Source of the DNA: a virus
Reading direction: 5' to 3' (one strand)
DNA length: 64,000 bases
IMG/VR virus record: IMGVR_UViG_3300043584_000003
Coordinates: 35,163 to 99,162 of that record
Positions within the stretch are counted from its first letter, which is position 1; the number at the start of each line of letters is the position of its first letter. The position numbers and the translations under genes are program-made. Below are positions 10,296 to 45,669 of the stretch, piece after piece. The notes under the pieces were generated by a model. That model was not told the DNA's origin. It did not search any database and saw nothing but the letters and a program-made list of their open reading frames with translations.

Positions 10296-10979
10296 ATGAT
10301 CTCCGTACTAGTGCCTACACGCAACCGACCGGACAACGTGCGACGTTTGCTCGAGTCGGCGCGCGCTACGGCGACCAGTGACGTTGAGTTTATGTTTTAT
10401 GTCGACGTTGACGACCCAAATCAACTTGACACGCTTAACGCGATCCACGCATACGACGGACACGTCGTCACCGGCGAGCGAATCGTCCTGTCTGAGATGT
10501 GGAATGTGTGTGCTAAGGCCGCGCTTAACGACGTCATGATGCATTGTGGCGACGACATTATCTTTCGTAGTAACGGTTGGGACCAGCGCGTGCTGGATAC
10601 GTTTGATGACTGCGATGATAAGATCTTGTTTGTGCACGGTAATGATCTCTCGCAGCAGGGTCAGCTCGGTACGCACGGCTTTTTGCACCGCCGTTGGACC
10701 GACGCGGTAGGATACTTTGTGCCACCGTACTTTAGTAGTGACATGAATGATCTATGGCTTACTGAGGTCGCTGATACGCTAGGTCGTCGCTGTTATCTTA
10801 GTGACGTTATCACCGAGCACATGCATCCGCTCTTCGGTAAGGGTGAGTGGGACCAGACTCATCAGGAACGACTCACGCGTCATTCACGTGATGATGTCGC
10901 TGCGCTTTATCAACGGCTCGCGCCGGAACGTGCGAACGACGTCGTCAAGCTTCAGGCGGTGATTAACGGCGATGGTTGA
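10296..10979 (+). CDS. Glycosyltransferase family 2 (GT-A)
   Basis: ISVLVPTRNRP start; VDVDD; CGDD (DxD-like). Confidence 0.85.
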   Translation: MISVLVPTRNRPDNVRRLLESARATATSDVEFMFYVDVDDPNQLDTLNAIHAYDGHVVTGERIVLSEMWNVCAKAALNDVMMHCGDDIIFRSNGWDQRVLDTFDDCDDKILFVHGNDLSQQGQLGTHGFLHRRWTDAVGYFVPPYFSSDMNDLWLTEVADTLGRRCYLSDVITEHMHPLFGKGEWDQTHQERLTRHSRDDVAALYQRLAPERANDVVKLQAVINGDG

Positions 10980-11625
10980 TGATCTACCGACGTGGACCGT
11001 TCTCGTAGCGACGCTCGGTCAACGAACCGAACGACTTAAGCGTCTGTTGGATGGCCTATTGCCGCAGACCGAGCGATACGACGGCGCCGTGCGCGTCTGC
11101 GCGTTGTACAACAACGGCGAGCGACCGTTGTCCGAGGTACGCCAGGACCTGATCGATGAGGCCACGACGGACTACGTCTCGTTCGTCGATGACGACGACG
11201 TCGTGCCCGACTACTTCGTCGATGAGGTATGCGCGCGGCTCGGTGACGTGGATTACGTCGGCTGGCAGATGCAATGTTATTCAGACGGCGTTTCGTTGAA
11301 ACCGACGTACCATAGCTTACGATATTCGTGCTGGTACGACGATGACGCGGGCTACTATCGTGATGTTAGTCATCTTAACCCGATTCGACTCCAGCTTGCA
11401 CGATGTGTTAGCTATCGAGGACTCGTGCCGCCGGAGGACGTCAGCTGGGCGACACAAATGCGACCGCATGTTAAGACTGAGGCATACGTTGATCGCGTCA
11501 TGTATCACTATCACGCATCGTCAGGCGACTCTACGTGGCGGCCGGGCACGGTATCGGTAAGAGACAGTGCACGTTATAACGTGTTACATGCTAACTTCTC
11601 CTATAATTTACGGAGTAGTACTTGA
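10972..11625 (+). CDS. Glycosyltransferase family 2 (GT-A)
   Basis: WTVLVATL; DYVSFVDDDD; PEDVSW. Confidence 0.8.
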   Translation: MVDDLPTWTVLVATLGQRTERLKRLLDGLLPQTERYDGAVRVCALYNNGERPLSEVRQDLIDEATTDYVSFVDDDDVVPDYFVDEVCARLGDVDYVGWQMQCYSDGVSLKPTYHSLRYSCWYDDDAGYYRDVSHLNPIRLQLARCVSYRGLVPPEDVSWATQMRPHVKTEAYVDRVMYHYHASSGDSTWRPGTVSVRDSARYNVLHANFSYNLRSST

Positions 11626-12560
11626 CTAGAACCGTGCTTGTCACCGGCGGCGCCGGATTCGTCGGCAGTCACCTCATCCAACGATTGCTTGATGATACCG
11701 ACTGGAACGTGATCAGCGTCGATTCGTTTCGCGGCGGTGGCGAGTTTATCAACCTACTCGACGCGTGCGGCTGGTCACGTGAGCGCGTCGTCTCGATAAC
11801 ACACGATCTCACGATCCCGTTTACCACCGCGCAGCTACGTTTTCTTGACGAGCGCGAGGTCGACGCGATCGTCAACGTCGCATCGCGTTGTCACGTTCAG
11901 GAGTCGATCGTCGGTCCGGTCGACTTTACGCTGAACAACACGCAGCTGATGATCAACATGCTACACGCGGCGTACGGCCTAGCCGTCGATCGATTCATTC
12001 AGATGTCGACCGACGAGGTCTACGGTCCGCATCAGCCGACGACCGACCAAGATTATCAGCCGTCGAGCCCGTACGCCGCGTCGAAGGCGGCGCAGGAGAT
12101 ATTCGCTCACGCATGGCGGCGTACGTATGAACTGCCGGTGACCATCGTGAACAGTGCCAACATGATCGGCGAGCGTCAGCGCGCGGACGCGTTCCTGCCG
12201 ATCGTTGTGCAGCTGGTCCGCGACGGCTTTACCGTTCCGGTGCACGCCAAGGAGGACGTCGTCGGTAGTCGAAACTACTCGTACGTCGGCAACGTCGTCG
12301 ATGAGCTGGTCGCCGAGCTGCGACGTGAACATCCAAGCGAACGGATCAAGCTTGACGGACAAGCCACGCTGTCCAACATAGAGCTCGTTGAGGAGATCGG
12401 TAAGATCGTTGGTCGCGAACCTCGCTGGACTAAGGTCGATGGTGATCAGGTTCGACCCGGCTATGATCAACTGTACCCGAAGCTCGGCGGTGAGTGGCAA
12501 CCAGCCGTGCCGTTCAGTGACGCACTGCGGCGTACCGTGCGGTGGTACCTCGATCAATGA
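11622..12560 (+). CDS. NAD-dependent epimerase/dehydratase (dTDP-glucose 4,6-dehydratase-like extended SDR)
   Basis: VLVTGGAGFVGSHL, STDEVYG and YAASK motifs. Confidence 0.9.
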   Translation: MTRTVLVTGGAGFVGSHLIQRLLDDTDWNVISVDSFRGGGEFINLLDACGWSRERVVSITHDLTIPFTTAQLRFLDEREVDAIVNVASRCHVQESIVGPVDFTLNNTQLMINMLHAAYGLAVDRFIQMSTDEVYGPHQPTTDQDYQPSSPYAASKAAQEIFAHAWRRTYELPVTIVNSANMIGERQRADAFLPIVVQLVRDGFTVPVHAKEDVVGSRNYSYVGNVVDELVAELRREHPSERIKLDGQATLSNIELVEEIGKIVGREPRWTKVDGDQVRPGYDQLYPKLGGEWQPAVPFSDALRRTVRWYLDQ

Positions 12561-13129
12561 ATGCCATGAGTGATCGAGTGACGCGAAGGTTAACACCATA
12601 CGAGCGGCATGCTGAGACGTACGACTGGGCCGGTTTGCAGGTACGTGAATACGTGACCATGCGGTATCCGATCGATATACAGGTACTTGACGTCGGCGCC
12701 GGTCGCGGTAAGTATCGTGACCTGTTGCCTGAGTATCCGAACATCGATGCCGTTGAGATATACCAGCCGACCGTCGACGAGGAAAACCTACGCGAACGCT
12801 ATCGCACCGTGTTCGCCATGGACGTCGCGATGTTCGCCGATAGTGCGCATGAGAAATACGACGTCATCATCATGGGTGACGTACTGGAGCACATGGAGAC
12901 TAACGACGCGCACGACGTTCTCGATCTGTTTATGGATGACGGCAGTGATGTCGTCGTGATCGTGCCATACCTCTTCCCGCAGGACGAGGAAGATGGTAAC
13001 GTACATCAACGTCATGTGCAGGACGACCTAACGCCTAACATCATGATGGTGCGATACCCCGAGCTGCAGCTCGTCGCGTTGGAGACGCGTGCCTGGCGTC
13101 CGTATAAGGGTATGTACATAAGGGAGTGA
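12557..13129 (+). CDS. Class I SAM-dependent methyltransferase
   Basis: VLDVGAGRGKY motif I; DVIIMGDVLEHM; start placed at the ATGA overlap. Confidence 0.85.
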   Translation: MNAMSDRVTRRLTPYERHAETYDWAGLQVREYVTMRYPIDIQVLDVGAGRGKYRDLLPEYPNIDAVEIYQPTVDEENLRERYRTVFAMDVAMFADSAHEKYDVIIMGDVLEHMETNDAHDVLDLFMDDGSDVVVIVPYLFPQDEEDGNVHQRHVQDDLTPNIMMVRYPELQLVALETRAWRPYKGMYIRE

Positions 13130-13132
13130 CGC

Positions 13133-14347
13133 GTGATGAGTATAGGCTGGGTTGGGCTCGGTAAGCTCGGTGCGCCGTGCGCCGCTGCGTTGTCGTTTAG
13201 CGGCAATCATGCGGTCTGGGGATACGACGTGCGGGGCGTCGACCCGGATAGCTACGACTGGGGCGACCTACCGCCGATCGAGCTGTGTGACTCGGTCGGG
13301 AAGGTCGTCGGTGAGACCGATGACGTCGTGTTCGTTGCGGTTCAGACGCCTCACTCGCCGGCGTACGGCGGTGAGATGGTCGCGCCGGACGAACCACGTG
13401 AGTTTGAATACGCATATCTGATTAACGCCGTACGTCAGGTCTGTCGGCAGGCGATGACGCAGCAAAAGAATATCACGCTGGTCGTGGTCTCGACCGTCCT
13501 GCCAGGTACGTTCGATCGCTACCTGCGACCGCTGCTGAACGAGTACGTCACACCGGTCTATCATCCGTTCTTCATCGCGATGGGCACGGTCGTTCAAGAC
13601 TTTATCGAGCCCGAGCTGACGTTGTTCGGCGTGGATCATGAGTCGCACGCCAAATCGGTTCACGAGCTATATCGTCCGATTCATAACGCACCCGCACCGA
13701 TGATGTCGATCGCGTCGGCCGAGCTGACCAAGGTCGCGTACAACACATACATCTCGATGAAGATCGTGTTTGCCAACACGATGGGCGAGATGTGCGAGGC
13801 GACCGGCGCGGACGTCGACGACGTCTCGTACGCGCTGTCGTTCGCGACGCAGCGGATCATGTCTAACGCGTACCTACGTGCCGGCATGGGAGACGGCGGC
13901 GCGTGTCATCCGCGTGACAACGTCGCGCTGTCCGCGCTGGCGCAGCGACACGGGCTGTCCGTTGACCTGATGGGTTTCCTGACGCGCGCCCGCGAGGCGC
14001 AGACGCGACGACTGGCTGAGCTCGTCGCGCACTGGGAACTGGTGGCGCAAAAGCACGTCGTCGTGCTGGGTACCGCGTACAAGCCGAACGTGCAGCTGGT
14101 CGACGGTTCACCAGCGCTGTTGCTCGCCGAGTATCTTCGTGAGCTGAACGTTAAGTTCACGCACGTGGATAACATCGAGCAGATCGTACCGTCGTTGTCG
14201 CGATCAGCACGCGTGTTTGTCATCGCTACGGCGCATGATGAATTTGCTGAGTTTAACTATCCAGCGGGGAGCATTGTGATCGATCCGTTTGGAATCATGA
14301 GCGCTTCGTCGGATATCATGCTTGTGACACCGGGACGAAAGCGATGA
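13133..14347 (+). CDS. UDP-glucose/GDP-mannose dehydrogenase family protein
   Basis: VGLGKLG Rossmann motif; ELTKVAYNTYISMKIVFAN; catalytic GGACHPRD; LGTAYKPN. Confidence 0.92.
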   Translation: MMSIGWVGLGKLGAPCAAALSFSGNHAVWGYDVRGVDPDSYDWGDLPPIELCDSVGKVVGETDDVVFVAVQTPHSPAYGGEMVAPDEPREFEYAYLINAVRQVCRQAMTQQKNITLVVVSTVLPGTFDRYLRPLLNEYVTPVYHPFFIAMGTVVQDFIEPELTLFGVDHESHAKSVHELYRPIHNAPAPMMSIASAELTKVAYNTYISMKIVFANTMGEMCEATGADVDDVSYALSFATQRIMSNAYLRAGMGDGGACHPRDNVALSALAQRHGLSVDLMGFLTRAREAQTRRLAELVAHWELVAQKHVVVLGTAYKPNVQLVDGSPALLLAEYLRELNVKFTHVDNIEQIVPSLSRSARVFVIATAHDEFAEFNYPAGSIVIDPFGIMSASSDIMLVTPGRKR

Positions 14348-14991
14348 CGACCGTCGCGGTATGCATTCCGACGATTCCCGGACGCGAGGCCATGCTTCAG
14401 CGCGCAACGCGCTCCGTTGCCGAGCAGACGCGGCCGGTCGACGCCGTGGACGTAGCGCTCGACTCGGTCGGTGAGGGTGCTGCGTCAACGCGCAACCGCG
14501 CATGGCAGATGACGTCGGCCGACTGGGTCGTGTTCCTTGATGATGATGATACGTTTAAACCCGAGCACGTCGAGCATCTACTAGGCGCTGCTGAGGACGC
14601 TAACGCTGACCTGGTGTATCCGTGGTTTGACATCGTGAACGACGTCGGCATAGTAATGAACGATCGCGATCCACTACGCATCGTTGTCAACGGTGAGCTC
14701 GTGACGCCGTTCGGATTGCCGTTTGCGCAGACGCACGTTGAGGAGCTGTACCAGCGCAACAACTTCATTCCGATCACCGTGCTGGTTCGTCGCCAGTTGC
14801 TTGAGGAGGTCGGTGGCTTTCCGGCGTTGAACAGTCCCGAATGGCCCGAGAACTGCTGCGAGGATTGGGCATTGTGGCGACGATTGCTTGACGTGGATGC
14901 GACGTTCACACACCTGCCGGAACGCACATGGAACTGGATGTGGCATGGTCGTAACACATCAGGACGTTCGTGGCGTCAAACCGGAGTGTGA
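14344..14991 (+). CDS. Glycosyltransferase family 2 (GT-A)
   Basis: VAVCIPTIPGRE; WVVFLDDDD; EDWALW. Confidence 0.88.
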   Translation: MTTVAVCIPTIPGREAMLQRATRSVAEQTRPVDAVDVALDSVGEGAASTRNRAWQMTSADWVVFLDDDDTFKPEHVEHLLGAAEDANADLVYPWFDIVNDVGIVMNDRDPLRIVVNGELVTPFGLPFAQTHVEELYQRNNFIPITVLVRRQLLEEVGGFPALNSPEWPENCCEDWALWRRLLDVDATFTHLPERTWNWMWHGRNTSGRSWRQTGV

Positions 14992-16100
14992 CTGTGAACG
15001 ACGAACCGCGTGTCATCGTTTATCCAGCGGATCGGTATGGGTGCGGAGCGCATCGGCTCATTTGGCCAGGTGAGACGCTCGCAAGTCAAGGACATGACGT
15101 TCGAGTCGTTACGCAACAGGAACGACACGTTGAGATGATCCTCGACGATCGCACCGATACGGTTGCCGACGTCACGATCCCGGACGGCTACGACGTCGTC
15201 GTGCTGCAGCGTGTTACTCATAAATATCTGACGCAGGCGATCGATATCATTCGTGCTAAGGGCGTCGCCGTTGTCATTGATATCGATGATGACCTGTCGG
15301 TGATTCATCCGGACAATCCAGCATGGACGATGCTTCATCCACGGCATGATGAACAGTATGTAGGAAAGTCATGGAAGCACTCGTGGCGTAACCTCGGTGA
15401 GGCGTGTCGCAAGGCAACGCTCGTTGTTTGTACCACGCCAGCGTTGGCTAAGCGATACGGCGCGAGCGGTAACGCGGTCGTCATTCCGAATTATCTCGCA
15501 TCGCACTATTACGGTATCGCGCACGATGATTCGGAGCTGCTTGGTTGGCCGGCATCGCTTCAGTCACATCCCAACGATCCGGGCGTCGTCGGAAACGCGG
15601 TCGCGCGACTGATCAATGCTGGGCATCGGTTTCACGTACTAGCAACCGCCAGCGGTGTCGCATCGGCGTTTGGTACGACGGATGATCGTGTGACGCATGC
15701 GGCGGATCTGATCTCACTAGAGGATTGGCCGATGCGAGTGAGCCAGCTTGGTGTCGGTATCGCGCCGCTCGCGGACACTAAGTTTAATGCTGCTAAGTCC
15801 TATCTTAAACCGCTTGAAATGAGCGCTGTCGGCGTTCCCTGGGTCGGTTCGCCGCGCGCTGAGTATCGACGACTACATCAGCTGGGTTGCGGACTACTAG
15901 CCGACCGACCAAAGGATTGGTACCGCGTGCTACGTAGCCTGCTGACGGACGCGTCGCGCCGCGCCGAGCTATCCGACGCTGGCCGCGACGTCGCGGCGCA
16001 GCTGCGACTAGAGGACCACGCATGGCGGTGGTGGGAAGCCTGGTCGGACGCGCTGAATCGTCAGCACGGTCGTGCTCATGCCGTGACCGTCATTACGTAG
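14988..16100 (+). CDS. Glycosyltransferase family 4 (GT-B)
   Basis: DVVVLQR...DIDDDL; GVGIAPL...FNAAKSYLKPLEMSAVGVPWVGS; start placed at the GTGA overlap. Confidence 0.85.
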   Translation: MTVNDEPRVIVYPADRYGCGAHRLIWPGETLASQGHDVRVVTQQERHVEMILDDRTDTVADVTIPDGYDVVVLQRVTHKYLTQAIDIIRAKGVAVVIDIDDDLSVIHPDNPAWTMLHPRHDEQYVGKSWKHSWRNLGEACRKATLVVCTTPALAKRYGASGNAVVIPNYLASHYYGIAHDDSELLGWPASLQSHPNDPGVVGNAVARLINAGHRFHVLATASGVASAFGTTDDRVTHAADLISLEDWPMRVSQLGVGIAPLADTKFNAAKSYLKPLEMSAVGVPWVGSPRAEYRRLHQLGCGLLADRPKDWYRVLRSLLTDASRRAELSDAGRDVAAQLRLEDHAWRWWEAWSDALNRQHGRAHAVTVIT

Positions 16101-20347: not shown

Positions 20348-21595
20348 TTAATTGCTTGTCGATACTAGCAGCCTGTCATCGGAAGGCCGAAGGGCCTTGT
20401 GTCGTTCGACGAGCCACTCACGATCACCGATCTCAACGCCGCGATATACCGCTGGTTGTCCGTCTAACGCGCGGATCGCTTGCTCGCCGATCCACTTACC
20501 GCATTGACAAGAAATGCCCTTTCCCCAGGTATGACGTAGTCCGGCGTTATGGCGCAACGGCTTGATCTTCCAATCATCGGGGAACCCCATGACGCGCGCG
20601 GCCTCACGATGCGTGATCATGCGAGGCTCCCACGGATGCATGACCATGTCGAGCGCGGAGCCCATGATGACCCGGCCGTACCTGTCCGGATCCCAACGCG
20701 TGATCGACGCGAAGCCCATGTGGAAACGCGGACGACCGGGCTTCGTCATAAGCAGCTTAGGTAGCATGTGCGTCCACGAATCGGGCAGCTTACCGAGCGT
20801 GTCGTAACAGTGCTCCGCGACGCGACCGACCGACCAACCAGCGGGCCAGCCGCCGTTGTCCTGGACGAGGCGGTAGAGATCGAGCGCGCGCTCGATTGGA
20901 ACGCCGTTGTGGTTCTGGTGCCCGTCAAACGTCGTGCAGTCGCCGCGTGCCTTGCGCGCCCACCAGGAGGGTTGCTTCCGGTACGGTTGTGCCTCCCAGG
21001 TCAGCGGATGATCACGAAGATCTGACCAGATGTCACGCAGCAACGGCACGCGGCCGATCAGCGGATACTCGACGCCGAACGGCACCTGCGATAGCACCAT
21101 GAAGTAGCGCGGCCGACGCGCGGCGCCGCCGAGCTCGAGCGCGTCCTGCATGACGTGGTACTGGTCGTAACGGAGACCGGTACGCTGTTCGAGTAGATAA
21201 CGTAGGTGTTGCATCAGTCGACGTCCGATGGTGAACGCCTGTCGAACCGATTCCATCGCGATGATCTGCGGTCGAACGCGCGTACCGTACGCGATGAATT
21301 GATACATACAGGAATTAATCTTTGAGTCAACACCGCGATGTTTGTTATCCGTCATAGGACTAAATCCGCTGCACGGCGGATTTCCAAAGAGTAGCTCAGC
21401 AGCTACCGGTGTCCAATCCTGCGGTGGACCGATCTCGGTTTGCCAATCATTTCCTAACAGGTGACGATTAGCTTCGCAATTTGGTACACCAAAACCACCG
21501 GGAAGCTCGCGCTTGCCAACGAGTTGAAATCCCGATTGCACGATTCCTAGTGTCATACCTCCTGCGAAGCCAAGTGCGTCAACGGCGCGATACAT
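20348..21595 (-). CDS. C5-cytosine DNA methyltransferase
   Basis: Motifs I (LGFAGG), IV (GNPPCSGFS), VI (ESV), VIII (RRPRYF), IX (REAARVMGFPD) and X (GKGI) in order. Confidence 0.88.
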   Translation of the reverse strand: MYRAVDALGFAGGMTLGIVQSGFQLVGKRELPGGFGVPNCEANRHLLGNDWQTEIGPPQDWTPVAAELLFGNPPCSGFSPMTDNKHRGVDSKINSCMYQFIAYGTRVRPQIIAMESVRQAFTIGRRLMQHLRYLLEQRTGLRYDQYHVMQDALELGGAARRPRYFMVLSQVPFGVEYPLIGRVPLLRDIWSDLRDHPLTWEAQPYRKQPSWWARKARGDCTTFDGHQNHNGVPIERALDLYRLVQDNGGWPAGWSVGRVAEHCYDTLGKLPDSWTHMLPKLLMTKPGRPRFHMGFASITRWDPDRYGRVIMGSALDMVMHPWEPRMITHREAARVMGFPDDWKIKPLRHNAGLRHTWGKGISCQCGKWIGEQAIRALDGQPAVYRGVEIGDREWLVERHKALRPSDDRLLVSTSN

Positions 21596-21818: not shown

Positions 21819-22259
21819 CTAACCGCATAGCACGCAGATTCGTGATACCGGATCAAACTCAACCTCGTCGAGCGCGCGCTTACAACGCAAACACTTGTTC
21901 GAAACGCCATCGTAGCCTGTGCGTTGTCGTTGCTTATTCATTTCCTGCTTGTTGCGGTATCGTTGTTCCCACTCATCGTCGGTAACACCTAATGCGCACA
22001 GTAGATTAGCGACAAAGTGAGCCACATCGACCAGCTCGCCGACCGCCGCATCGCGATTAACCCAGCCTCGATTCTCGGTCCAATTTTTCCATCCGACCTC
22101 GTCCATGAACTCGGATAGCTCGGTTACGGCCGACGTATGATTCATAACAACAAAGTCGGCTAGCTCGATCGGATTCTTGATCGGCAGCGTACGACCAAAG
22201 ACGTCGCGTTGAAGCGCGTACGTCGATCCTAACCAGTTCCAGTTAGACACTAGTGACAC
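21819..22259 (-). CDS. Dimeric (all-alpha) dUTPase/dCTPase-like pyrophosphatase
   Basis: ELSEFMDEVGWKNW and ELVDVAHF motifs; NKQRQ; C-terminal CxxC...CxxC. Confidence 0.75.
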   Translation of the reverse strand: MSLVSNWNWLGSTYALQRDVFGRTLPIKNPIELADFVVMNHTSAVTELSEFMDEVGWKNWTENRGWVNRDAAVGELVDVAHFVANLLCALGVTDDEWEQRYRNKQEMNKQRQRTGYDGVSNKCLRCKRALDEVEFDPVSRICVLCG

Positions 22260-23688
22260 CTAGCCTTTGCTCGATCGTTCGTTCCAGTAGGTGATCGTTC
22301 CAACGACGACTCAGCAGGTCGAGCTGCTGGTTCGTGAGCCAGTCATACCAACGCTGGTCATCAATGATGAGCTGCGCACGCTGTGCAAACTCGGTGGGCG
22401 TTTCGACGCGAAGCCAGTACGCCAACGTAAGATCGGCATCGGTCCAATCGTTGCGTGGCGAGTAGAACGGCACGTTCTTGATCGTTCCGATTAGCTTGCT
22501 CGCGTCAGACGGCCGACGACTCGGCAGCGTCCAGCCTTGCGCGTCGACCTGTTCGATCATGAAGCACACGGACCGTGCGGCCCAACATTGATATGACTTG
22601 GCGACCGACCAATCGGATTCGATGATCGGCAGCGACAACGTCACGCGCCATCGGTTAAGCAGCTGATAAAACTCATCGGGTGTTGTACCCCGTACCGTAT
22701 CATCGGGAACGTCTGCGATGCTGGTTGCGTCCCACTTCCCGTAGACCTCGGCATCAGGGAACGCAGCAAGTAGGTAATCGTTGACGAGCTGTGAACGACG
22801 TCGATTCTCGCCGAGCACGGATGCCTTGGTGCTGGTCGTTGCAACGCCCGCTGGGCAGCGATCGACGAATCGCTTCCACGGCAGCTCTGCCCAGTTATCC
22901 GGAAGAATCATCAACTCGAGATCGCAGTGGCGGTAACGGTGCGTCGCCTTCCAGAGCTCACCGCCGCGTTCGAGCTTCACGTCGTGCGTCTCGAGCTCGT
23001 AAGGCGTTCGTGCGTCGCCGTATCGCTCGTGTCGCTGGTAGCGTGTGAATTGGTGTTGCGCCAGCATATCGTCGGTACCAGACGGCCACTTAACATCGCG
23101 CGCCTTGAGATAGTTACGTGGATCGGGTACGAGCCACGTCACCGGTGCGCGACCAAGCGTCTTATCGCCGAGCGCGTTGATCCCCCGTACGATGTAGCGG
23201 CAATACGATTGCATCGAGTCGTAGACCTTGTTCGCGTCTAGATTCGGGTTCACGAACGTCTCGACCCAAGTGTTGCCGGTCTGCGGGATTCGTAGCTGCG
23301 TAGGCGCGTGTTGACCGACGTGAATAATGATACCGTCCAGATCGCTGATCAGCTCAACAAGATCGTCCTCAAATCCGCTGACCTCACTGCACCACCAGGA
23401 CGGCTTGTTGGTCCAGTACGGATCGAACGCCGTGCGGTAATAGCCCGGCTGGTCCGTTGGACGTGGTGGTGCTGCAGCAGCGCGCTCACGCGCGTTGAGC
23501 CACGCGTTCTCGATGTTGGCCTGTGTGAAGTCACCGGCGTCGTTATGCCCGACGACGACCCACTTGACGTCGGGATTACGCCTTGCAAGTCGATAAAGAA
23601 GATTAGGTTTTTCTGCGTCGCCAGCAAAACCCCATCTATCTTTTTGAAATTTCATGGTACGGCCAAGACAGCAATAGCCCACACGCAT
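22243..23688 (-). CDS. GT-B glycosyltransferase resembling T4 DNA beta-glucosyltransferase
   Basis: By-eye matches to recalled T4 BGT segments: LVPDPRNY~LFTDIRLP, RRSQLVNDYL..EVYG~RESKMVEFL..EFFG, KSYQCWAARSVCFMIEQVD~RVWETMASDAVMLIDEEFD, VETPTEFAQRA..QQLDLL~VNNRAELIDRV..IQHDIL; TAATG coupling. Confidence 0.6.
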   Translation of the reverse strand: MRVGYCCLGRTMKFQKDRWGFAGDAEKPNLLYRLARRNPDVKWVVVGHNDAGDFTQANIENAWLNARERAAAAPPRPTDQPGYYRTAFDPYWTNKPSWWCSEVSGFEDDLVELISDLDGIIIHVGQHAPTQLRIPQTGNTWVETFVNPNLDANKVYDSMQSYCRYIVRGINALGDKTLGRAPVTWLVPDPRNYLKARDVKWPSGTDDMLAQHQFTRYQRHERYGDARTPYELETHDVKLERGGELWKATHRYRHCDLELMILPDNWAELPWKRFVDRCPAGVATTSTKASVLGENRRRSQLVNDYLLAAFPDAEVYGKWDATSIADVPDDTVRGTTPDEFYQLLNRWRVTLSLPIIESDWSVAKSYQCWAARSVCFMIEQVDAQGWTLPSRRPSDASKLIGTIKNVPFYSPRNDWTDADLTLAYWLRVETPTEFAQRAQLIIDDQRWYDWLTNQQLDLLSRRWNDHLLERTIEQRLGVTSV

Positions 23689-25217
23689 TATGTCACCCGC
23701 TCTAACCATCGTGCGCCGCGTGCCACCAGGATCTCGTCCATCGGCGGCGCGTGGAGGCTAGCGCTGTTGAGCAGCGTCAACCCGGCAAGAAGCTCGATAT
23801 CACGAACGCGCAGCTCGTGTTCGATCGTGAACTTAATGATCTGCGCTCGTTCGGTTTCACGTTGTCGCCAGTATCTAAAGTCACCGTGCTCGGCGTTCTC
23901 CCAGTGAAACTCGGTCGCGCCGAGTAGCTTAGCGAGATCATACCGTAGGTCCGAGCACTCGAGCTCGCCGGCGAAATCCTCACGCCAATCGATCGTCATG
24001 AACTCGCCAAGCCGATCATCGCTTGGAATAATGACGTTGGCGTATGTTAGGTCACCGTGAAACGCACCGGGCACGACGCCCTCGATCAGCCCGTACCAGT
24101 CGACGCGCGTTATCGCGTCGAGCGCGATGACTTGGAGCTCACGCGGTAACGCCATGACCCGCGAGAACGTCTTATCACGGTAGAACCTCATCACCGTGCC
24201 ATACCAGTTACCGGGAACCTTCACGAAGCGACGTTCGTCCCAGAACATGTGCTTCCACCAGTTAAGCAACCGGTGAGTGACGTCAGCAAGCGGGTCCGCT
24301 TCGATCGCCGCATATGCTGTGATTCCGTCGACATACTGGTACGCCATCATGTCGATACCGGACGGCAAGATGGACAGCGGTACGACGTCGCCGAGCGCCG
24401 TAGCTCGTTCGACACGCCAGCGGATCTTATTGGTATCGGTGTTGAACTTCACGACGCGTGGAGGTATGACGTACGTTGCTTGGCCGCGCTTCACGTTGTC
24501 GTACGCACCGAACGTCGCCTGCGCGGTCCGGTACGCCTGCTCATCGCCGACGTCAAGCCAGTTCACGAAACGTAATCCGAGCGGCTGGCCTGACTTGACG
24601 ATCGCGTCGAGTCCGCTCGAAAATTGCACCTCACCGGCGCGCGTCTCAGCGTCCTCAAGCCCACGCCAAAACGTAGGTAGGTCGCCGGCGACGACGTATC
24701 CGAGCGCGGTTGACACGACCGAACCAGGCGCGACGTCCGGTGTCTTATCGTCGATCCGCTGGGCAAAGTAACCGTCAACGGTCGGTACGACGCGACACCA
24801 GCGTGCCGCAGGCGTACCGGTCGGCAACGGTGCGACGCCTAGCCAGGACTCGTTTGATTCCCAGAGATCCTCGTCGCGGTCCCATAGCGTATCGCAGGCT
24901 ACCCAGATCAGATCGTCTTCAAACGGTACGAACGGTGCCGCGCATAACAACGACGCGCCTGGTCCGGGAACATCGGCCCAACGACCGTCATGTACGAACG
25001 TCACGTCGAGGTTAGGGTGCGCGAGCCGAACATAGTCTTGGATCTGCTCGGCGCGGTAACCGGTCACGATGACGATCCTTGCGTCTACCGGTGCTAATTC
25101 AAACTGACGCGTTAAGATCGCCTTGTTGCTCAAGGGCACAAGTGCCTTGTGAAGTTCGTCACCGACCCGACCGAGGCGTGAGCCTCGGCCGGCGGCGACG
25201 ACGACAAACGTAGGCAA
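23688..25217 (-). CDS. Nucleotidyltransferase fused to APH/choline-kinase-like domain
   Basis: N-terminal AAGRGSRL...KALVPL; C-terminal HGDLTYANVII, IDWRED, DLRYDLAKL. Confidence 0.8.
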   Translation of the reverse strand: MPTFVVVAAGRGSRLGRVGDELHKALVPLSNKAILTRQFELAPVDARIVIVTGYRAEQIQDYVRLAHPNLDVTFVHDGRWADVPGPGASLLCAAPFVPFEDDLIWVACDTLWDRDEDLWESNESWLGVAPLPTGTPAARWCRVVPTVDGYFAQRIDDKTPDVAPGSVVSTALGYVVAGDLPTFWRGLEDAETRAGEVQFSSGLDAIVKSGQPLGLRFVNWLDVGDEQAYRTAQATFGAYDNVKRGQATYVIPPRVVKFNTDTNKIRWRVERATALGDVVPLSILPSGIDMMAYQYVDGITAYAAIEADPLADVTHRLLNWWKHMFWDERRFVKVPGNWYGTVMRFYRDKTFSRVMALPRELQVIALDAITRVDWYGLIEGVVPGAFHGDLTYANVIIPSDDRLGEFMTIDWREDFAGELECSDLRYDLAKLLGATEFHWENAEHGDFRYWRQRETERAQIIKFTIEHELRVRDIELLAGLTLLNSASLHAPPMDEILVARGARWLERVT

Positions 25218-28863: not shown

Positions 28864-30834
28864 CTAGTCGGTGACGTTCAACGTTTGATCGAGGTCGAGC
28901 GCCGAGTTCAACGTAATGTTTTCAGTTAGGTCTAACGCCGACGTGTCAGCATGTGGATCGATACCAATGAGGGCGGCGCGATCCCGCGTGATCTCCTCAA
29001 GACGTTCGAGCTTTTGAATCAATCGCTGAACCTGGTCCTCCTCGACGGTACCTCTTGTGACGAGATCGATGATCCGGATCGAATCGTGCTTTTCGGCTCC
29101 GGGACGATGCGGTCGATCCTCCTTCTGTCTTTCGTCGACGAGCGACCAGCTGCGCTGCACGTTAATGAGAGTGTCAGCGGCGGACATATTCAACCCGACG
29201 CCACCTGATTGGCCGGTGAAGACGAGCGCGCGGTTTCGACCCGCGTTCATGTCCTCAAGCGCGCGCTGGCGATCGATCGGTGCGACCTCGCCGCTGATAA
29301 TGCCGTGTGGAACATTTAGCTTATCGAGTCGAGCGGATACCATAGCCAGCACGTCCAGATGAACGACCGAGATTAGGACCGGTGCGATCCGATGGTTCAC
29401 GGTCAATACACCGAGCTCGTCGAGCACCTCCTCGAGTACGTCGAGCTTAGGCGACGGTTCGCGCATGGTCACCTTCCACGACGAGATGTCGTCCTCATCG
29501 GGTTTCTCGACGGTCACGGATGCTGATGCAAACTGCATTAACCGTGTTTTAACGACCAACTGGTTCGCGGCGAGCAACAGCGTGCCATCGGCTAGTCGCG
29601 TCCGTAGGCTGGTCTCAAACTCGCGGTACGCGCGCGCCTGCGTCGTCGACATCTCGACGACGCGCGTCTCGCGTATCTTAGGCGGGAGTTGCGGTAGCAC
29701 GACGGCCTTCAGCATTCGTCGAAAACGCGGGTCGAGGATCTTGAACAGCTCATCGCGCGTATCAGGTCGAACACCGACGACGTCCATGCCACCGAACGCG
29801 TTCCATGACAACAAACAGAAGCGATCTTGAAAGGCAGACTTAGTTGGGAAGTCGTCTGGTGCGACGAAGTGCATGATCGACCACAGATCGCCCGGATGGT
29901 TCGCGACCGGTGTACCGGTCAACGCCCAGCGGTATCGCACGGATGACGAGTGTCCGAGGTACCAAGCGGCTCGCGTTTGTTTTACCTGTGGGGATTTGAC
30001 ACGGTGGGCCTCATCGAGTATGACTATCTTAAACTCAAACTCATTCAACTCCTTGCGATGAACCTCACATCGTGATGGCGTTAGATTCTCGTCACCAGTA
30101 TGTGGATCACATTCACGGCATCGTATGAGGCGAACCGAACCGAACGGCGCAAGCCGTGAGAACAGTCGTGCTGACTCGATGTTGATGATCACCAACGCGG
30201 TCGGGTCGCCGCGCGCCTCCTTCAGCGTCTTACGCTTCTGTGCGGCGGTGCCGTCGACGACGTACGGCGTCGCGTTGGGCAACCAGACGGCGCTCTCCTT
30301 GGCCCAGTGCTGCTTGACGCTGTTAGGACAGATCACCAGCGCAGGTAGACCGCCGTGGTTAAGCTGCTCATGCGCACGAATCATAGAGAGTGTCTGTGGA
30401 GTCTTTCCGGCTTAAGGTACCTAAGCCCCCATCTCATCTCCGAGAAGTCCGTTGTTGGCACGTAGCATAAATGCTACGCCGGTCTCCTGGAAAGGGAAGA
30501 GGGTAGGTTGGGCATCACCTCTCTTCCACGAATTAAACAGCTCATGCTCGGGCGCGTCGGCCGGTAGCTCGAGCGCGGAGCGCAGTTCGATGGACGGTCC
30601 GATGCGCGCGTCGTGTAGCTTCCAAGCCCATTTAGCAAGCTTTTCACCGACGATCATATCGGCACCAAACAACCCGCGCATAATCACGAGTGATGACCAC
30701 GCGGCTGGAACGCGCCAGATCTTTTCTTGTGCGTCCCAACGCGCACCAGGAATCTGCTTAACCAGCGACTTCATCTGCCACTGCGTAGTAAGAGTGATGC
30801 TCTCGGTCATTGCATCATACTCGGCGGTCGCCAA
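28864..30834 (-). CDS. SNF2-family helicase interrupted in motif I by a 15-nt in-frame insert with two stops
   Basis: 30421-30834 ends LLGDEMGA*; the same frame continues VP*AGKTPQTL into 28864-30384 (ILDEAHRVK, LTGTPVAN, QKEDRPHRPG). Confidence 0.85.
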
Positions 30835-30893: not shown

Positions 30894-31382
30894 TCACATA
30901 GTCGTGTAGAGGAGCATACTATCGAACAACGACGCGCGATGGTGCGCTAGCACTAGGAGGGCGTGACGTGTTGCGTCGTTGGCGTCATCAGCATCGGCGC
31001 GTTCGACGTCACGTGCTGAGACGAATAACTTAAGCTTGCGCAGCATGCCGTTAGAGATGAGACGCTTAGCGTTGGCGGGCTGCTGAAGATATAGCGGCCA
31101 GTCGTTGAGACGACATAGCTGCTTCACGACGCCGATCGTTTCAAGCGCGGTCGGCTGCGCGGTGTGCTTAACGGTGTCGGCGGTAATAGTGAATCGTTCG
31201 CAGCCGACCAGAACGTCGTGGCCGGGATGCGTCAGGAACGAGAAGCGAAGCGCGAACTCGTCAAGAATCGACGGCGGTCCCTGCTCGGCGTGAAGTCGAA
31301 ATCCGTCGCCACGAATGATCGCGAGCCCGGTGCTATTCCCGGGGTCGATACCAACGGCAAAGGTCGTTCGCGCATTACGCAC
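30894..31382 (-). CDS. RuvC-like Holliday junction resolvase
   Basis: VGIDPGNSTGLA, VGCERF, DDANDATRHAL. Confidence 0.75.
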   Translation of the reverse strand: MRNARTTFAVGIDPGNSTGLAIIRGDGFRLHAEQGPPSILDEFALRFSFLTHPGHDVLVGCERFTITADTVKHTAQPTALETIGVVKQLCRLNDWPLYLQQPANAKRLISNGMLRKLKLFVSARDVERADADDANDATRHALLVLAHHRASLFDSMLLYTTM

Positions 31383-31725
31383 TAAACAAACGATAGTCGT
31401 CCGCGAATCGGATCTCGAGTCCGCACGCTGCCGCGACCTGGATCTCGAGCCTTGCGCCGACCGACGCCTGCCAACCGGGAAGGACGTAGACGCCGTCGCA
31501 CTGCATCAACATCTCGATGATGTCGATGCGAAGAAAGCAAGCCACGCCGTGATCGCCGGTAGTTTGCGCGGTATGTGAGATCGGGCACGGGCCCTCGTGG
31601 ATCGGCTTGATGTCGTGAGGTACCAACGTTAGGTGACCGCGCGTCTCAAGGTATGTTGCTGCCTGGCGGAACAGCGGCTCGTTGCCCTGCGCGTAGCCGG
31701 AGATCGGGCCGCAGACGTAGATCAT
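31375..31725 (-). CDS. DUF4406 family (nucleoside 2-deoxyribosyltransferase-like fold)
   Basis: IYVCGPISG...CDGVYVLPGWQASVGARLE; start near 31725-31731 behind AAGGAG. Confidence 0.8.
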   Translation of the reverse strand: MIYVCGPISGYAQGNEPLFRQAATYLETRGHLTLVPHDIKPIHEGPCPISHTAQTTGDHGVACFLRIDIIEMLMQCDGVYVLPGWQASVGARLEIQVAAACGLEIRFADDYRLFSA

Positions 31726-31788
31726 CGACAATCTTAGCTCCTTCGATCGATTGTTGTTTGGTGTTCGGTTGATACCGAACATCGAACG

Positions 31789-33588
31789 CTACGAGCAGTC
31801 GCCCCAGTTCGGACCTACCTCGGCGGACCAGGTCAGCGGAACCGAGAGCAGCCGGTCGTCGTTGACAACGTCCTTGAGCGTAACGAGTACATCATTGAGA
31901 TCGTTGTGCGGTACCTCAAGATCGATCTCATCGTGGACGGGCCAGATCATGTATGGTCCGAGGCCGGCGTTATCCGCACCAATGATTTTCATCTTAAGGA
32001 TCTCGGCGGCGGTCCCCTGGATCACATAGTTAATTAGCGGGTAGAGCTTACGTTCGCTCGCGGTGTGCTTACGTCCGGTTAATGGTGAGCGAATGTACGC
32101 CTCGCCCTCGAGCGCTAGTCGCTCACGCGCGTCGCGGTCGACCTTACGAATCCAACGTGGAACATTCGGATACAACGCGTCGAAGTCGCGCATAAAATCG
32201 GCGGCCGCCTGCTCGGTAACACCTGCCGTCGCGGCGAACTTTTCAATGCCGGCGCCGAAGATCTTAGCATAGCCGCCGTTCTTGATCAGTTGACGCCGTG
32301 GATCGGACTTTTGAAAGTTAGGTTCCTTAAAAAGATTACGTCCGATGTTCACGAAGAAATCGCCGTCCGATCGGAACGCGTCGATCATACCCTGATCGCC
32401 GGACATATCCGCCATGACGCGCATTTCGATCTGATCCGCGTCGCACTTAACCCAGACCGAATCATCGGGAGCGATAAAGCTACGGCGAATCTTCTTACTC
32501 ATCGCTCCACGTACGGGGACGTTCTGGATGTTCGGGTTCGACGACGACATCCGACCGGTCCGAACACCGCTCGCACCGCCGGGTTCAAACGGATTCTGAC
32601 CCATGCCACCGACGGTGTTGATCGACGGATGAACCCGACCGTCGCGCTGTGACGCCTCAAGGTACGTCGACAGATACGTCGATACCATTTTTTGCGCGCG
32701 GCGTCGGTTAAGGACCACCTCGGCCAGTGGATGATTCATCTCCCGTAGAACGAACTTATCGAGCGCGAAGTCGCCATTCTTTGTATACTTCGTGAACTGA
32801 TAGTTCTGCGACTGAAAATACCGAATCACGTCGCGGTTAGAACCGGGATACAACCCGTAGTTTTTCGAACACCAGAGCTCGGCCTCGTCGACGTACCGCT
32901 GCAGCTCGGCGGCGAACGCCTCGACGTACGCACGATCAACCAGCGCGCCCTTACGCTCCATGCGTTCGCAGACCCAGGCGACGGCTAGCTCGAGCTCATA
33001 CGACGCGGGAGCCTCCCGCTGGACGATGGGATCGATGTATTCGTCGTACTGATATGTCAGGATCGTATCAACGCCAGAATAAGACCAAAAGGGTTCGTAC
33101 GTAATAGGAACCGTTGCCCAGGTCCAGCCGCCGCCCGTGCCAAGTGCGTCGCCAAGTTGGTCTTGAAACATCTTGGCACGTGGGTCGACGTGTTTCACCG
33201 CAAGGTTCTTCAGCGCGAGCGATCCGGTGCTGGATACGACGTGCGTCTTTAACCGCGTGTCGTCGCAACGATCTTCTGGCAGCCGGATGCCGAGCGCGTT
33301 ATAGATCATCGCGTTATCGAAGGTCATGTTATGTAAGACATAACGACCCTCATATTGCTGAAGTAGTTCAAGCGCAAGCCCAGCCCAGCCCGGATATTCG
33401 ACCGGAATGACGTACGATTCGCGATCGTCGCCGAGCTGGATCAACCGCGCATGATCCGTGTCCTTATTTAATCCTGTGGACTCGGAGTCGAGTGCGATCT
33501 TATCGTGCGTCGACAGCCAGCGCTTACATTCGTACGCGGTTTCAACATTGTCCACCAGGTGGACGGCGATGCCGTCAAGCCCCACCAT
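31789..33588 (-). CDS. polA: DNA polymerase A family with 3'-5' exonuclease domain
   Basis: ALDSESTGL (Exo I), HNMTFD (Exo II), YSGVD (Exo III), DADQIEMR (A), KNGGYAKIFG (B), VHDEI (C). Confidence 0.95.
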   Translation of the reverse strand: MVGLDGIAVHLVDNVETAYECKRWLSTHDKIALDSESTGLNKDTDHARLIQLGDDRESYVIPVEYPGWAGLALELLQQYEGRYVLHNMTFDNAMIYNALGIRLPEDRCDDTRLKTHVVSSTGSLALKNLAVKHVDPRAKMFQDQLGDALGTGGGWTWATVPITYEPFWSYSGVDTILTYQYDEYIDPIVQREAPASYELELAVAWVCERMERKGALVDRAYVEAFAAELQRYVDEAELWCSKNYGLYPGSNRDVIRYFQSQNYQFTKYTKNGDFALDKFVLREMNHPLAEVVLNRRRAQKMVSTYLSTYLEASQRDGRVHPSINTVGGMGQNPFEPGGASGVRTGRMSSSNPNIQNVPVRGAMSKKIRRSFIAPDDSVWVKCDADQIEMRVMADMSGDQGMIDAFRSDGDFFVNIGRNLFKEPNFQKSDPRRQLIKNGGYAKIFGAGIEKFAATAGVTEQAAADFMRDFDALYPNVPRWIRKVDRDARERLALEGEAYIRSPLTGRKHTASERKLYPLINYVIQGTAAEILKMKIIGADNAGLGPYMIWPVHDEIDLEVPHNDLNDVLVTLKDVVNDDRLLSVPLTWSAEVGPNWGDCS

Positions 33589-34096
33589 CGTCCTCCACGA
33601 GCTCGTCCTCCGACAGCGCGACGACCGGCGGCCTAAACGTCTCGCCCGGCTGGTCCGATAACACGTCTACCGTGAGACCAGCGGACAACAGCAACTCAAC
33701 GCCGGTCGTGTCGCGATAGACCTTCGCGCAGACCACGCGCTCGATGCCAACGTTCACGATCAGCTGCGCGCACGGAACGCACGGCGACAACGTCGTGTAC
33801 AATACGGAACCGTCGAGGCTAACGCCGTACCTGGCAGCGAAGGCTACGGCGTTGGCCTCGGCGTGAACACCGGTTGGGCACGTTGGTTCGCTAGGACCGA
33901 AGTCGTCGGTCGTTCGATCATCGTGAACGCAGTGTGGCATACCGCGCGGGGCGCCGTTGTACGCGCTGGACAAGATCCGGCCGTCCAACGCGACGACGCA
34001 ACCGACCCGCGCGCGTGAGCACGTACCGCGTTCGGACATGACGAACGCGGTGGCCAGCAGCGTCATGTCCATGGTCGGACGCTCGGTCGTCGTCAT
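33575..34096 (-). CDS. dCMP deaminase family
   Basis: CSRARVGC, HAEANA, PCVPC zinc motifs. Confidence 0.9.
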   Translation of the reverse strand: MTTTERPTMDMTLLATAFVMSERGTCSRARVGCVVALDGRILSSAYNGAPRGMPHCVHDDRTTDDFGPSEPTCPTGVHAEANAVAFAARYGVSLDGSVLYTTLSPCVPCAQLIVNVGIERVVCAKVYRDTTGVELLLSAGLTVDVLSDQPGETFRPPVVALSEDELVEDDGGA

Positions 34097-34941
34097 GACG
34101 TCTTCCGGAGCGTCAGCGCGTATAAGTCATCCATTTGTCGGCAGTACCACGGATTGAGCTCGCGATCACGCGCGGTCGGCGTGTGCGCGAGCAGACGACG
34201 CGCGACGACGGTCGCCGACGTACCACGCGGCGTGATGATTCCGATCGGCAGCTCAGGGCGCGGTTTGGTAGTCGTCGACATCTTATTTAATGCCGCATCA
34301 ACATCGGTCTCATACAGGTGAAGACTACCAACGTGATGAACGTAGCAGCCGACGTCGACGCCGAGGCGACGCGCGATCGTGTGTTGGACCTGCGCAAACA
34401 TGAACGCATCAAAGCATAATCCCAGCCAAACGTCCTGCGATCGCATCGTGACGTGTAGCTCGAGTAGGTCGTTGCGCAAAAGAAATTGAAGCGATAACGT
34501 GCACGGTCGATCACCGTTGTGCATGAGATCGCGCGGTTCCCAAATGGTCGCGACCGCGCGGCGCGTCGTTGGATCCTTCTTAAGCAACGTGTACGCACCG
34601 GACAATCGTTGCGCGAGTCTTGGACCATACGCACCGAAGTCAGGATTAGACGGATCTACTAGGACGTCACCGAACTTCGGGGCGGCTAACTTAATGAGAT
34701 CGGATCGTGCCTCCCCAGCGAGCAGCTGGAGCGCCTCAACGGCGGCAAGCTTTGTGCTCACGCCGCGTCCGGTACCGAGCGGCAGCATCGTTCGTGCGTG
34801 CGCTTGGAACACCAACGTGACGCCGGTCTGTTCGCGCGTCGCGAGACCGCGGGACGTAATCCTTTGTCCGGTCCGCGCGAGCCAGTTCACCAGATACACG
34901 TAGTCGTTACGCAGGTCCTCCATGTAACGCATCTCAGGCAT
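34093..34941 (-). CDS. Thymidylate synthase-family enzyme with dCMP-type Asp (probable dCMP hydroxymethylase/modifier)
   Basis: TRRA, PCTLSLQF, RSQDVWLGLCFD, SLHLY; Asp where dUMP-specific ThyA has Asn. Confidence 0.8.
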   Translation of the reverse strand: MPEMRYMEDLRNDYVYLVNWLARTGQRITSRGLATREQTGVTLVFQAHARTMLPLGTGRGVSTKLAAVEALQLLAGEARSDLIKLAAPKFGDVLVDPSNPDFGAYGPRLAQRLSGAYTLLKKDPTTRRAVATIWEPRDLMHNGDRPCTLSLQFLLRNDLLELHVTMRSQDVWLGLCFDAFMFAQVQHTIARRLGVDVGCYVHHVGSLHLYETDVDAALNKMSTTTKPRPELPIGIITPRGTSATVVARRLLAHTPTARDRELNPWYCRQMDDLYALTLRKTS

Positions 34942-35926
34942 CGGCCGCCTCCGCTACCGACGCGATGGTCTGGATGCCGAGCACGCGACGCAGATAAGCA
35001 TCCGGTTCGTGATGACGGAAGCGAGCCCAGTACTGCGGATGCGGTGCGTAATGACTGATGTCGACGCCGACGCGGCGCAGCGTCTTACGCGCCTCGACGC
35101 CGAGCGCGACGACCCGAGGCTTGCCGAGCTTATTCCAGCAGGCGTGCACGTCGTCGACGTCGTTCGCGCTGACGACACCGATCTGCGACAGCAGCGTGCC
35201 GTGCGTCGCGACGCGCAGCGGTTCGCGCGTCAACGCAGAGAATAGGTAGTGTCCGGACGTACCGGGGAACGGCGCGAACGCGGGCCAGCTGCCGTATCTG
35301 ATCGGCTCGCCGGAGACACCGCGTCGATCACCGACCAGCAGTACGCTCGGCCAGCGTGGACCGATGTACGTGACGTAGTCGTTAAGCGCAGAGACGCGTT
35401 CGTGTTGTACGTGAGCGGTCTCGATGATGTCGTCAACATCGTCATTGGTTGGATCATTGTCGTCGAGCACGATAAGCGGCAGCAACGTTGACGCCATCGC
35501 GTGTTCAAACGCGCGTGTAACGTCGGGGATTCGATCGATCTCATCATACAGATCGTCTCGATGACGACCGCATGCGTCGAGATATTCGTTCGTTCGCCGG
35601 ACATGTACGAGCAACGCGCCGCGCGATAGCAAAAACAGTTCGAGCCACGCGTTAATGGCGGCATCGAGCTGCGTCGCTCGTCCGAGAACAAATGGATAAA
35701 CGGCCTCACCTACGTGCCAGCGATCACAGATGACGTTATGATCGTTGCCGGCTCGATAGTTGAGCAGCGGTTCCGCATATTCATCGAGTGGATGCGCGGT
35801 TGGCGGACCCCTGTGATAAACATCTAACGATGACAACGAGGCTCGCTGTCGGTTCAGCGCGAGCGCAAGTCGTTGTGCGAGCTGCGTTTTTCCAGTGCAG
35901 TCGCTACCGTCGAGCAAAATTAGCAA
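34934..35926 (-). CDS. dNMP kinase fused to a uracil-DNA glycosylase-superfamily domain
   Basis: LLDGSDCTGKT P-loop, CDRWHVGE; C-terminal VLLVGD, GTSGHYL, VVALG, HPQY; TTG start behind GGAG. Confidence 0.7.
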   Translation of the reverse strand: MLILLDGSDCTGKTQLAQRLALALNRQRASLSSLDVYHRGPPTAHPLDEYAEPLLNYRAGNDHNVICDRWHVGEAVYPFVLGRATQLDAAINAWLELFLLSRGALLVHVRRTNEYLDACGRHRDDLYDEIDRIPDVTRAFEHAMASTLLPLIVLDDNDPTNDDVDDIIETAHVQHERVSALNDYVTYIGPRWPSVLLVGDRRGVSGEPIRYGSWPAFAPFPGTSGHYLFSALTREPLRVATHGTLLSQIGVVSANDVDDVHACWNKLGKPRVVALGVEARKTLRRVGVDISHYAPHPQYWARFRHHEPDAYLRRVLGIQTIASVAEAADA

Positions 35927-41819: not shown

Positions 41820-41862
41820 GATAACCTCGTTCCTCGGTCGATCGGTCGATCGGTTGTATTAC

Positions 41863-41970
41863 CTACGGACGATACGCATCACCGCATCGTGTTCCAACCG
41901 CGATAATGACGAAAAACGTCACAAGCAGCCAGAGCCGTGGATCATACAGCATAGTCTTGATCGTCGTCAT
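41863..41970 (-). CDS. Small membrane peptide, 35 aa (not in ORF track)
   Basis: MTTIKTMLYDPRLWLLVTFFVIIAVGTRCGDAYRP. Confidence 0.3.
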   Translation of the reverse strand: MTTIKTMLYDPRLWLLVTFFVIIAVGTRCGDAYRP

Positions 41971-41979
41971 GGTTCGTAC

Positions 41980-42028
41980 CGTACGCGGCGGACGTATAGC
42001 GAACTAGACCATACGTCCGCCTCGTACG
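41980..42028. other. Long hairpin
   Basis: GGCGGACGTAT/ATACGTCCGCC stem with outer CGTACG pairs. Confidence 0.5.
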
Positions 42029-42044
42029 CGATGAGCGTATGTTT

Positions 42045-42087
42045 ATCGACCGGATAACTTTGCTGGGTAACCGATCGACCTCGGCCC
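42045..42087 (-). ncRNA. Short Y-RNA-like hairpin 1
   Basis: GGCCGA..GTCGATCGGTTACC...GTTATCCGGTCGAT; shares its helix with three neighbouring elements. Confidence 0.45.
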
Positions 42088-42153
42088 ATCTTACCTCCGT
42101 TAGAAATCCCACACCCAACGCCGATTGTTAGCGAGTTCCGGTAGGAGGCCTCG

Positions 42154-42226
42154 TTGCGGGAACCGGACTCGAACCGGTGACCTCAGGGTTATGAGCCCTG
42201 CACGCTACCAACTGCGCTACCCCGCG
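42154..42226 (-). tRNA. Initiator tRNA-fMet(CAT)
   Basis: CGCGGGG 5' end with C1:A72 mismatch, GGG:CCC anticodon stem, CT CAT AA loop, TTCGAGT T loop. Confidence 0.93.
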
Positions 42227-42240
42227 ATGCGCGATAGAAG

Positions 42241-45658: not shown

Positions 45659-45669
45659 GACTTGATCTC

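Follow-up and report, generated by a model that had tools for sequence, protein, structure and literature searches.

The DNA considered here is a 64,000-nt stretch (the window) of the virus record IMGVR_UViG_3300043584_000003, a phage record of 100,903 bp rated 100% complete. At positions 21819-25217 it carries three coupled genes for a remote relative of the beta-glucosyltransferase (BGT) of phage T4, an enzyme for an activated sugar and a nucleotide pyrophosphatase. It is probable that this phage makes sugar-modified 5-hydroxymethylcytosine (hmC) by means of two sets of enzymes, a base arm and a sugar arm, and that the coverage of its cytosines may be partial. The DNA is probably sugar-coated because the distant relative of T4 BGT adjoins the enzyme making the activated sugar. 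The synthesis of hmC, the removal of dCTP, the transfer of the sugar to DNA, the identity of this sugar and a role in defence are what we infer from genes, folds, residue signatures and synteny. The two runs that contain the whole stretch are soil metagenomes, which may be its source. An actinobacterial host is indicated by WhiB, by the arrangement of the genes and by the cultured phages most closely related (DSL-LC01 and phages of Gordonia and Micrococcus).

The three coupled genes

An earlier note, made from the sequence alone, described three coupled genes, and these open reading frames were found as described on the minus strand. They encode the donor enzyme (23688-25217, 509 aa), here called NTK, the glycosyltransferase (GT; 22243-23688, 481 aa) and the pyrophosphatase (21819-22259, 146 aa). 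The start ATG of the GT gene overlaps the stop of the upstream NTK gene as TAATG, and the GT and pyrophosphatase frames overlap by 17 nt. Ratios of nonsynonymous to synonymous substitution (dN/dS) across these genes, calculated against two relatives, are about 0.14-0.38, being higher in NTK (0.31-0.38) than in GT (0.14-0.15). All three are genuine genes, coupled to each other and subject to purifying selection.

The GT is a remote homolog of T4 BGT. As a single sequence, it gave no real match in Pfam, PHROGs, NCBIfam or PDB, and a match with the lactamase VMB-1 was dismissed as chance. The BGT fold was found to be the best match of the AlphaFold model (pLDDT 95.5): T4 BGT headed the Foldseek search with E 2.2e-8, ranks 1-6 all being BGT, and the comparison in VIA gave Z 22.7 with a root-mean-square deviation of 3.4 over 309 aligned residues, the next GT having Z 18.0. 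For a profile built from 97 members of the GT family, BGT was the only PDB match (1bgt, E 2.1e-6), a local match restricted to the C-terminal domain; a narrow family profile, in contrast to this broad one, failed to find BGT. The beta-glucosyltransferase family phrog_7922 was matched by 5 of the 97 members, whereas the GT of the window alone does not match it.

The by-eye alignment of this protein with T4 BGT, including the pairing of VPDPR with FTDIR and large insertions, holds because the global profile alignment places D189 on the catalytic D100, together with R191 on R102, R298 on R195, K364 on R269 and Q367 on E272; the VPDPR-FTDIR pairing itself appears only when the alignment is forced to be global. 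D189, the predicted catalytic base, is conserved in 95/97 family members, R298 in 96/97 and K364 in 97/97. Glu272 of BGT, which binds ribose, is replaced by Q367 in the GT of the window and in all 117 near homologs, while Glu is kept in 79/97 members of the wider family; this change, fixed among the near homologs, might tentatively be taken to mark a different nucleotide carrier. In total, 136 near homologs and 313 representatives at 50% identity were collected.

The donor enzyme NTK is, according to its model (pLDDT 95.6), a sugar-1-phosphate nucleotidyltransferase (residues ~1-240) fused to an APH/choline-kinase-type sugar kinase (~240-509), the architecture of AfhE. The N-terminal part matches NTP_transf_3 of Pfam (E 2e-12) and has the fold of RmlA (Z 25.4), whereas the C-terminal part resembles the choline kinase LicA (Z 16.5) and APH (Z 16.2). 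The kinase residues G388, D389, N394 and D410 are invariant in 111 homologs, and matches to the APH family were seen in homologs of NTK. The proposed fusion is borne out by the modelled fold and these matches, and the idea that the phage makes its own nucleoside diphosphate (NDP) sugar gains support from both folds and the intact motifs. The top nucleotidyltransferase rows are nearly tied, within Z 1-2, and the fold names no sugar substrate.

The proposed base arm

The genome contains a single thymidylate synthase (TS) homolog (34093..34941, minus strand), and its best PDB match is the CMP hydroxymethylase MilA (E 1e-23). Its residues D144, C147, D170 and D178 correspond to L143, C146, D169 and N177 of the Escherichia coli enzyme. 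According to the published rules, N177D brings preference for dCMP, L143D/E leads to hydroxymethylation and D169N to hydroxylation (PMC13326640). The homolog has N177D and L143D/E and keeps D169, as do the 5hmdCMP synthases T4 gp42 and MilA; the protein of the window and every linked homolog examined have Asp here, unlike the 5hodCMP synthase RB69 gp48 with its D169N. The hydroxymethylase signature was present in 5/5 genomes of relatives searched, and five cultured phages agree. The TS homolog is therefore predicted to make 5hmdCMP, and the acceptor is most likely hmC and not 5-hydroxycytosine (5hoC): of the two bases named in the earlier note, the former stands, and the hydroxylase route is ruled out by the retained D169. 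The route through a C5-cytosine methyltransferase (C5-MTase) and a TET dioxygenase is ruled out too, because the genome has no match to PF12851 (Tet_JBP).

The 146-aa product matches dUTPase_2 of Pfam (E 3.8e-9) and is 43% identical over 42 aa to T4 gp56. By family membership it is the dimeric all-alpha dUTPase/dCTPase expected downstream of the GT, specificity for dCTP being only putative; this family is found also in 65 Microbacterium phage records. The dNMP kinase (34934..35926, minus strand) was recognized by a profile match with YorR (E 7e-18). Its C-terminal domain is conserved and resembles uracil-DNA glycosylase (UDG) with an Atlas score of 0.88, which is a lead only; no Pfam or PDB profile match to this domain was found. 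This candidate UDG-like domain could serve the repair of deaminated hmC. A dCMP deaminase (33575..34096; dCMP_cyt_deam_1, E 5e-21) and a family A DNA polymerase, Pol A (31789..33588; DNA_pol_A, E 1e-67), lie on the same strand. The T4-like pathway proposed earlier is thus backed by a BGT-family GT, an NDP-sugar enzyme, a dCTPase-like gene and a TS homolog with the signature of a dCMP-specific enzyme.

The order of genes on this replication strand is dNMP kinase, TS homolog, dCMP deaminase, Pol A, RuvC, helicase, nuclease, ATPase, single-stranded DNA-binding protein (SSB), NTK, GT, pyrophosphatase and a C5-MTase-like gene (20348-21595). The product of the latter matches DNA_methylase of Pfam (E 3e-15) and, in alignment, has retained the catalytic motifs Pro-Cys, Glu and Arg-x-Arg; in motifs I and X, which bind S-adenosylmethionine (SAM), the whole family differs from canonical C5-MTases. 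In almost every locus this gene comes next after the cassette, with which it is co-inherited. Among cultured phages, its homologs were found in those of Gordonia and Micrococcus and in DSL-LC01, which also possess the related TS, and one more homolog is found in a T4-like contig (L014). Leftover cytosine may be the substrate that the protein methylates, or its function may be a different one.

Proposed pathway and known systems

In the proposed pathway, the TS homolog, judged from its signature, would convert dCMP into 5hmdCMP, which the dNMP kinase and a host NDP kinase would raise to the triphosphate. The pyrophosphatase would remove dUTP and, putatively, dCTP, the deaminase would supply host dTMP synthesis, and Pol A would put hmC into DNA. 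In the sugar arm, the kinase domain of NTK would phosphorylate a sugar or a sugar phosphate at its anomeric carbon, and the N-terminal domain would form the NDP-sugar, both steps being predicted from the folds. The BGT-like enzyme would flip out hmC and transfer the sugar with inversion, using D189 as a base.

The base arm resembles the T4 pathway to glucosyl-hmC (gp42, gp1, gp56, Cd and BGT) in having a TS homolog with the hydroxymethylase signature of a dCMP-specific enzyme, a dNMP kinase, an all-alpha pyrophosphatase and a deaminase. The GT shares with T4 BGT the GT-B organization and equivalents of D100, R102, R195 and R269, but it is 130 aa longer, about 10% identical and has Gln at the position of E272. 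Unlike T4, the phage encodes donor synthesis, is an actinophage with Pol A and has a linked C5-MTase-like gene. AfhE is a nucleotidyltransferase-kinase making UDP-arabinose, and the arabinosyl-5hoC pathway of AfhE, RB69 gp52:53 and DLP3 gp82 likewise joins an N-terminal nucleotidyltransferase to a C-terminal APH-like kinase for an NDP-sugar (PMC13326640). However, the TS of the window keeps D169, its genome has neither arabinose-5-phosphate isomerase nor the phosphatase AfhF, and the GTs of that pathway are reportedly BshA/MshA-like, not BGT-like (PMC13326640). In contig 53, heptosyl-5hmC was produced by a HAD-APH protein together with a cytidylyltransferase and a BGT-like GT (Pyle et al., bioRxiv 10.1101/2023.12.21.572611). 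An APH-like kinase, a nucleotidyltransferase and a BGT-like GT-B enzyme act there as a joint set on 5hmC, but hmC arises post-replicatively through C5-MTase and TET, whereas the genome of the window is without Tet_JBP; moreover, the kinase is joined there to HAD, while in the window its fusion partner is the transferase and no HAD is present.

The Enterococcus phages Planchet, 9183 and TJE4 (Andrewesvirinae) have a GT homolog (profile probability 99.9%) directly behind an NTK homolog (E 1.5e-31), as well as TS and dUTPase, but they carry a HAD phosphatase absent in the genome of the window. In the cultured phage Planchet, the kinase, TS, dUTPase, HAD, NTK homolog and GT homolog form one run. 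A literature search found no DNA chemistry for these three phages. The data on glycosylated cytosine in PMC4999554 concern the phages VPE25/VFW, and this chemistry was rejected as a direct precedent because neither phage appeared among the homologs of the GT. By these comparisons, the system would work like that of T4 with an AfhE-like donor arm, and would be neither an arabinosyl-5hoC system nor a TET route.

Donor cassettes of relatives and the nature of the sugar

Across dozens of loci the GT family is linked with the nucleotide pyrophosphatase and swappable donor genes, and in relatives its partners are interchangeable sugar-donor cassettes of at least four types. The full cassette (~14 loci) consists of a HAD phosphatase, a GatZ-like TIM barrel (profile match GatZ, E 4e-7), a cupin similar to mannose-6-phosphate isomerase and NTK. 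The minimal cassette, NTK alone, was found in 12 loci including the window. The split cassette (~9 loci) contains a separate APH kinase, HAD and nucleotidyltransferase, and the fourth one (5 loci) an RGP/STELLO-like protein with an NAD-dependent epimerase. The HAD phosphatase, the GatZ-like ketose-phosphate epimerase and the cupin isomerase of the full cassette would lead to a rare sugar. A literature search yielded no paper on what the GatZ-like cassette produces, and none on DNA chemistry in phage 9183 or in the DS/DK phages of Gordonia.

Within one split cassette lies a transaldolase gene (L031:932-1603), which suggests a sedoheptulose-derived sugar. Since the split type mirrors contig 53 and includes this transaldolase, a seven-carbon sugar is favoured for part of the family; for the window it is no more than a possibility. 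It is rather likely that the sugar is not glucose. A heptose or heptulose is a tentative suggestion, although it is the single likeliest class.

Several further loci deserve mention. In L025 a methyltransferase gene of the Methyltransf_24 family (8276-9211) between NTK and GT suggests a methylated sugar. In a close relative, L083, a separate ThyX gene (8966-9673) occupies the same place, fitting a TS homolog that does not make dTMP. The cultured actinophages DSL-LC01, Sixama, Phendrix and Kurnik (L016, L070, L071, L072) combine a TS of the hydroxymethylase signature with unannotated GT-like genes at the corresponding position, which in DSL-LC01 is filled by other GTs and UDP-galactopyranose mutase. 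The GTs at this position were rejected as homologs of the GT of the window, having no detectable homology with it. These four phages are ready material for testing hmC glycosylation.

Reduced cassette and site avoidance

A number of observations weigh against glycosylated hmC as set out above. The earlier note spoke of a full pathway, and this description cannot be kept for the genome of the window because the phosphatase, epimerase and isomerase of relatives are missing: the phosphatase, GatZ-like epimerase and cupin are absent anywhere in this genome and in a second complete genome, and no match to SIS isomerase or HAD was found in the complete 100.9-kb genome. The identity between GT and T4 BGT is only ~10% in the structure comparison. 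In a marine phage, a glycan island without a GT of this family contains a cupin-NTK-GatZ module as well, so that NTK alone is not DNA-specific. The C5-MTase-like gene is present, though a fully substituted genome would offer it no substrate. Finally, the site CCGCGG occurs 11 times in the genome of the window against 77 expected; the ratio of observed to expected numbers is 0.08 in kin of the ten-member clade described below, compared with 1.07 in full-cassette phages. T4 DNA resists 94% and T4gt DNA 82% of Type II enzymes (PMC7653180), and such purging is, by analogy, hard to square with full substitution.

Ten minimal loci form one clade (support 100) among full-cassette lineages, and an eleventh adjoins it at an open node (quick trees by FastTree, the long branches L015 and L007GT2 being left out of the second tree). 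The simplest reading of these trees, with weak inner branches and a midpoint root, is that the minimal cassette is a secondary loss. The kinase loop is HGDxTxAN in 12/12 minimal NTKs, as opposed to HGDxNxGN in 12/13 full-cassette NTKs; this change represents one or two evolutionary events and no independent repeats. Because the clade lacks the three donor genes and has a changed kinase loop, we propose that it probably activates a sugar needing no dephosphorylation or borrows host enzymes.

The eleventh minimal locus, L085, retains CCGCGG and lacks GGCGCC (0 vs 11.5 expected). Loss of CCGCGG through deamination of 5-methylcytosine was rejected, since C-to-T neighbours are not more enriched than transversions, and no phage-encoded cutter of the Eco29kI type was found. 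The purging could stem from host restriction of DNA whose modification is incomplete, from a nuclease that tolerates or requires the modification, or simply from a difference in host range. Shielding by the proposed modification may be partial: the strong, clade-specific avoidance speaks against complete protection from restriction and is the chief argument against a claim of that kind.

A more far-reaching version seems to us unlikely. According to it, an undescribed sugar (a heptulose or a rare aldose of the GatZ route) would be placed on part of the cytosines, the altered C5-MTase-like enzyme would perform a dedicated, possibly SAM-independent edit or completion step, and the loss of three donor genes would have changed the sugar and made the clade vulnerable again to a nuclease specific for CCGCGG.

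Other explanations

Ordinary glucosyl-hmC, with the GT using NDP-glucose, NTK topping up the pool and the product as in T4, would agree with BGT being the closest solved relative of the GT and with a fold list of NTK headed by glucose-1-phosphate nucleotidyltransferases. A free hexose needs only a kinase and a nucleotidyltransferase, and the rare-sugar genes are absent in this clade. However, bacterial hosts make NDP-glucose themselves, the tie among the top rows of NTK leaves the substrate unnamed, donor cassettes are swapped among relatives, and the large insertions of the GT are of the kind described for BGT-like enzymes with bulkier sugars. We consider this explanation unlikely.

Hydroxymethyluracil (hmU) as the acceptor is quite improbable. 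The deaminase would turn 5hmdCMP into 5hmdUMP, thymine would be partly replaced and glycosylated in the manner of base J, and cytosine would stay largely unmodified. The coupling of deaminase and TS genes and the possible UDG-like domain on the dNMP kinase speak for such a scheme, and unmodified cytosine would account for the avoidance of CCGCGG as well as for the C5-MTase-like gene. Yet T4 encodes dCMP deaminase alongside hmC too, the enzyme of known hmU phages is dUMP-specific with Asn177 whereas the TS of the window has Asp, and CCGCGG is not avoided by full-cassette relatives with the same genes.

The GT and NTK might also glycosylate virion proteins or the host surface together with the late cluster 10296-16100, which recurs in relatives, and NTK modules are indeed found in glycan islands. 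This is highly improbable: the nearest fold of the GT is a DNA enzyme, its gene is situated between those of SSB and dUTPase on the replication strand, the GT-NTK pair is found again beside TS in unrelated Enterococcus phages, and the late cluster is equipped with its own donor enzymes. The least probable is a degenerate pathway with a broken donor route and mostly unglycosylated hmC, to which the absence of three donor genes, the avoidance of CCGCGG and the higher dN/dS of NTK than of GT would conform, but not the retention of all catalytic motifs, the age and diversity of the clade (NTK identity 50-73%) and a kinase-loop change that is fixed, not scattered.

Other genes of the window

The glycan cluster at 10296-16100 on the late strand comprises seven genes behind the tail genes: three GT2 genes, an epimerase, a methyltransferase, a UDP-sugar dehydrogenase and one further probable GT. 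It likely serves virion glycosylation. At 30384-30834 the frame of an SNF2 helicase is broken by a stop near the Walker A motif, and a gene similar to DUF4406/nucleoside 2-deoxyribosyltransferase lies behind Pol A (31375-31782). The region 40143-47915 contains a Ro60/TROVE-like gene, a gene of ribosomal protein uL1 and a repeat-rich RAMP-like region.

Conclusions

A DNA sugar shield against nucleases is a known trick, and here it would be achieved by a different combination of donor enzyme and GT. Glycosylation of hmC made before replication would thereby reach into a large lineage of actinophages, most of them uncultured, and a BGT-related family of 313 representatives, having no Pfam model of its own, is defined. 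Since one GT scaffold accepts several donor cassettes, nature may offer in this family a collection of enzymes for labelling hmC with new sugars; its simplest member, the unit of one donor gene and one GT gene, is testable in E. coli. In our opinion, the cassette reduction, the kinase-loop change and the site avoidance together offer a testable case for sugar choice versus nuclease escape.

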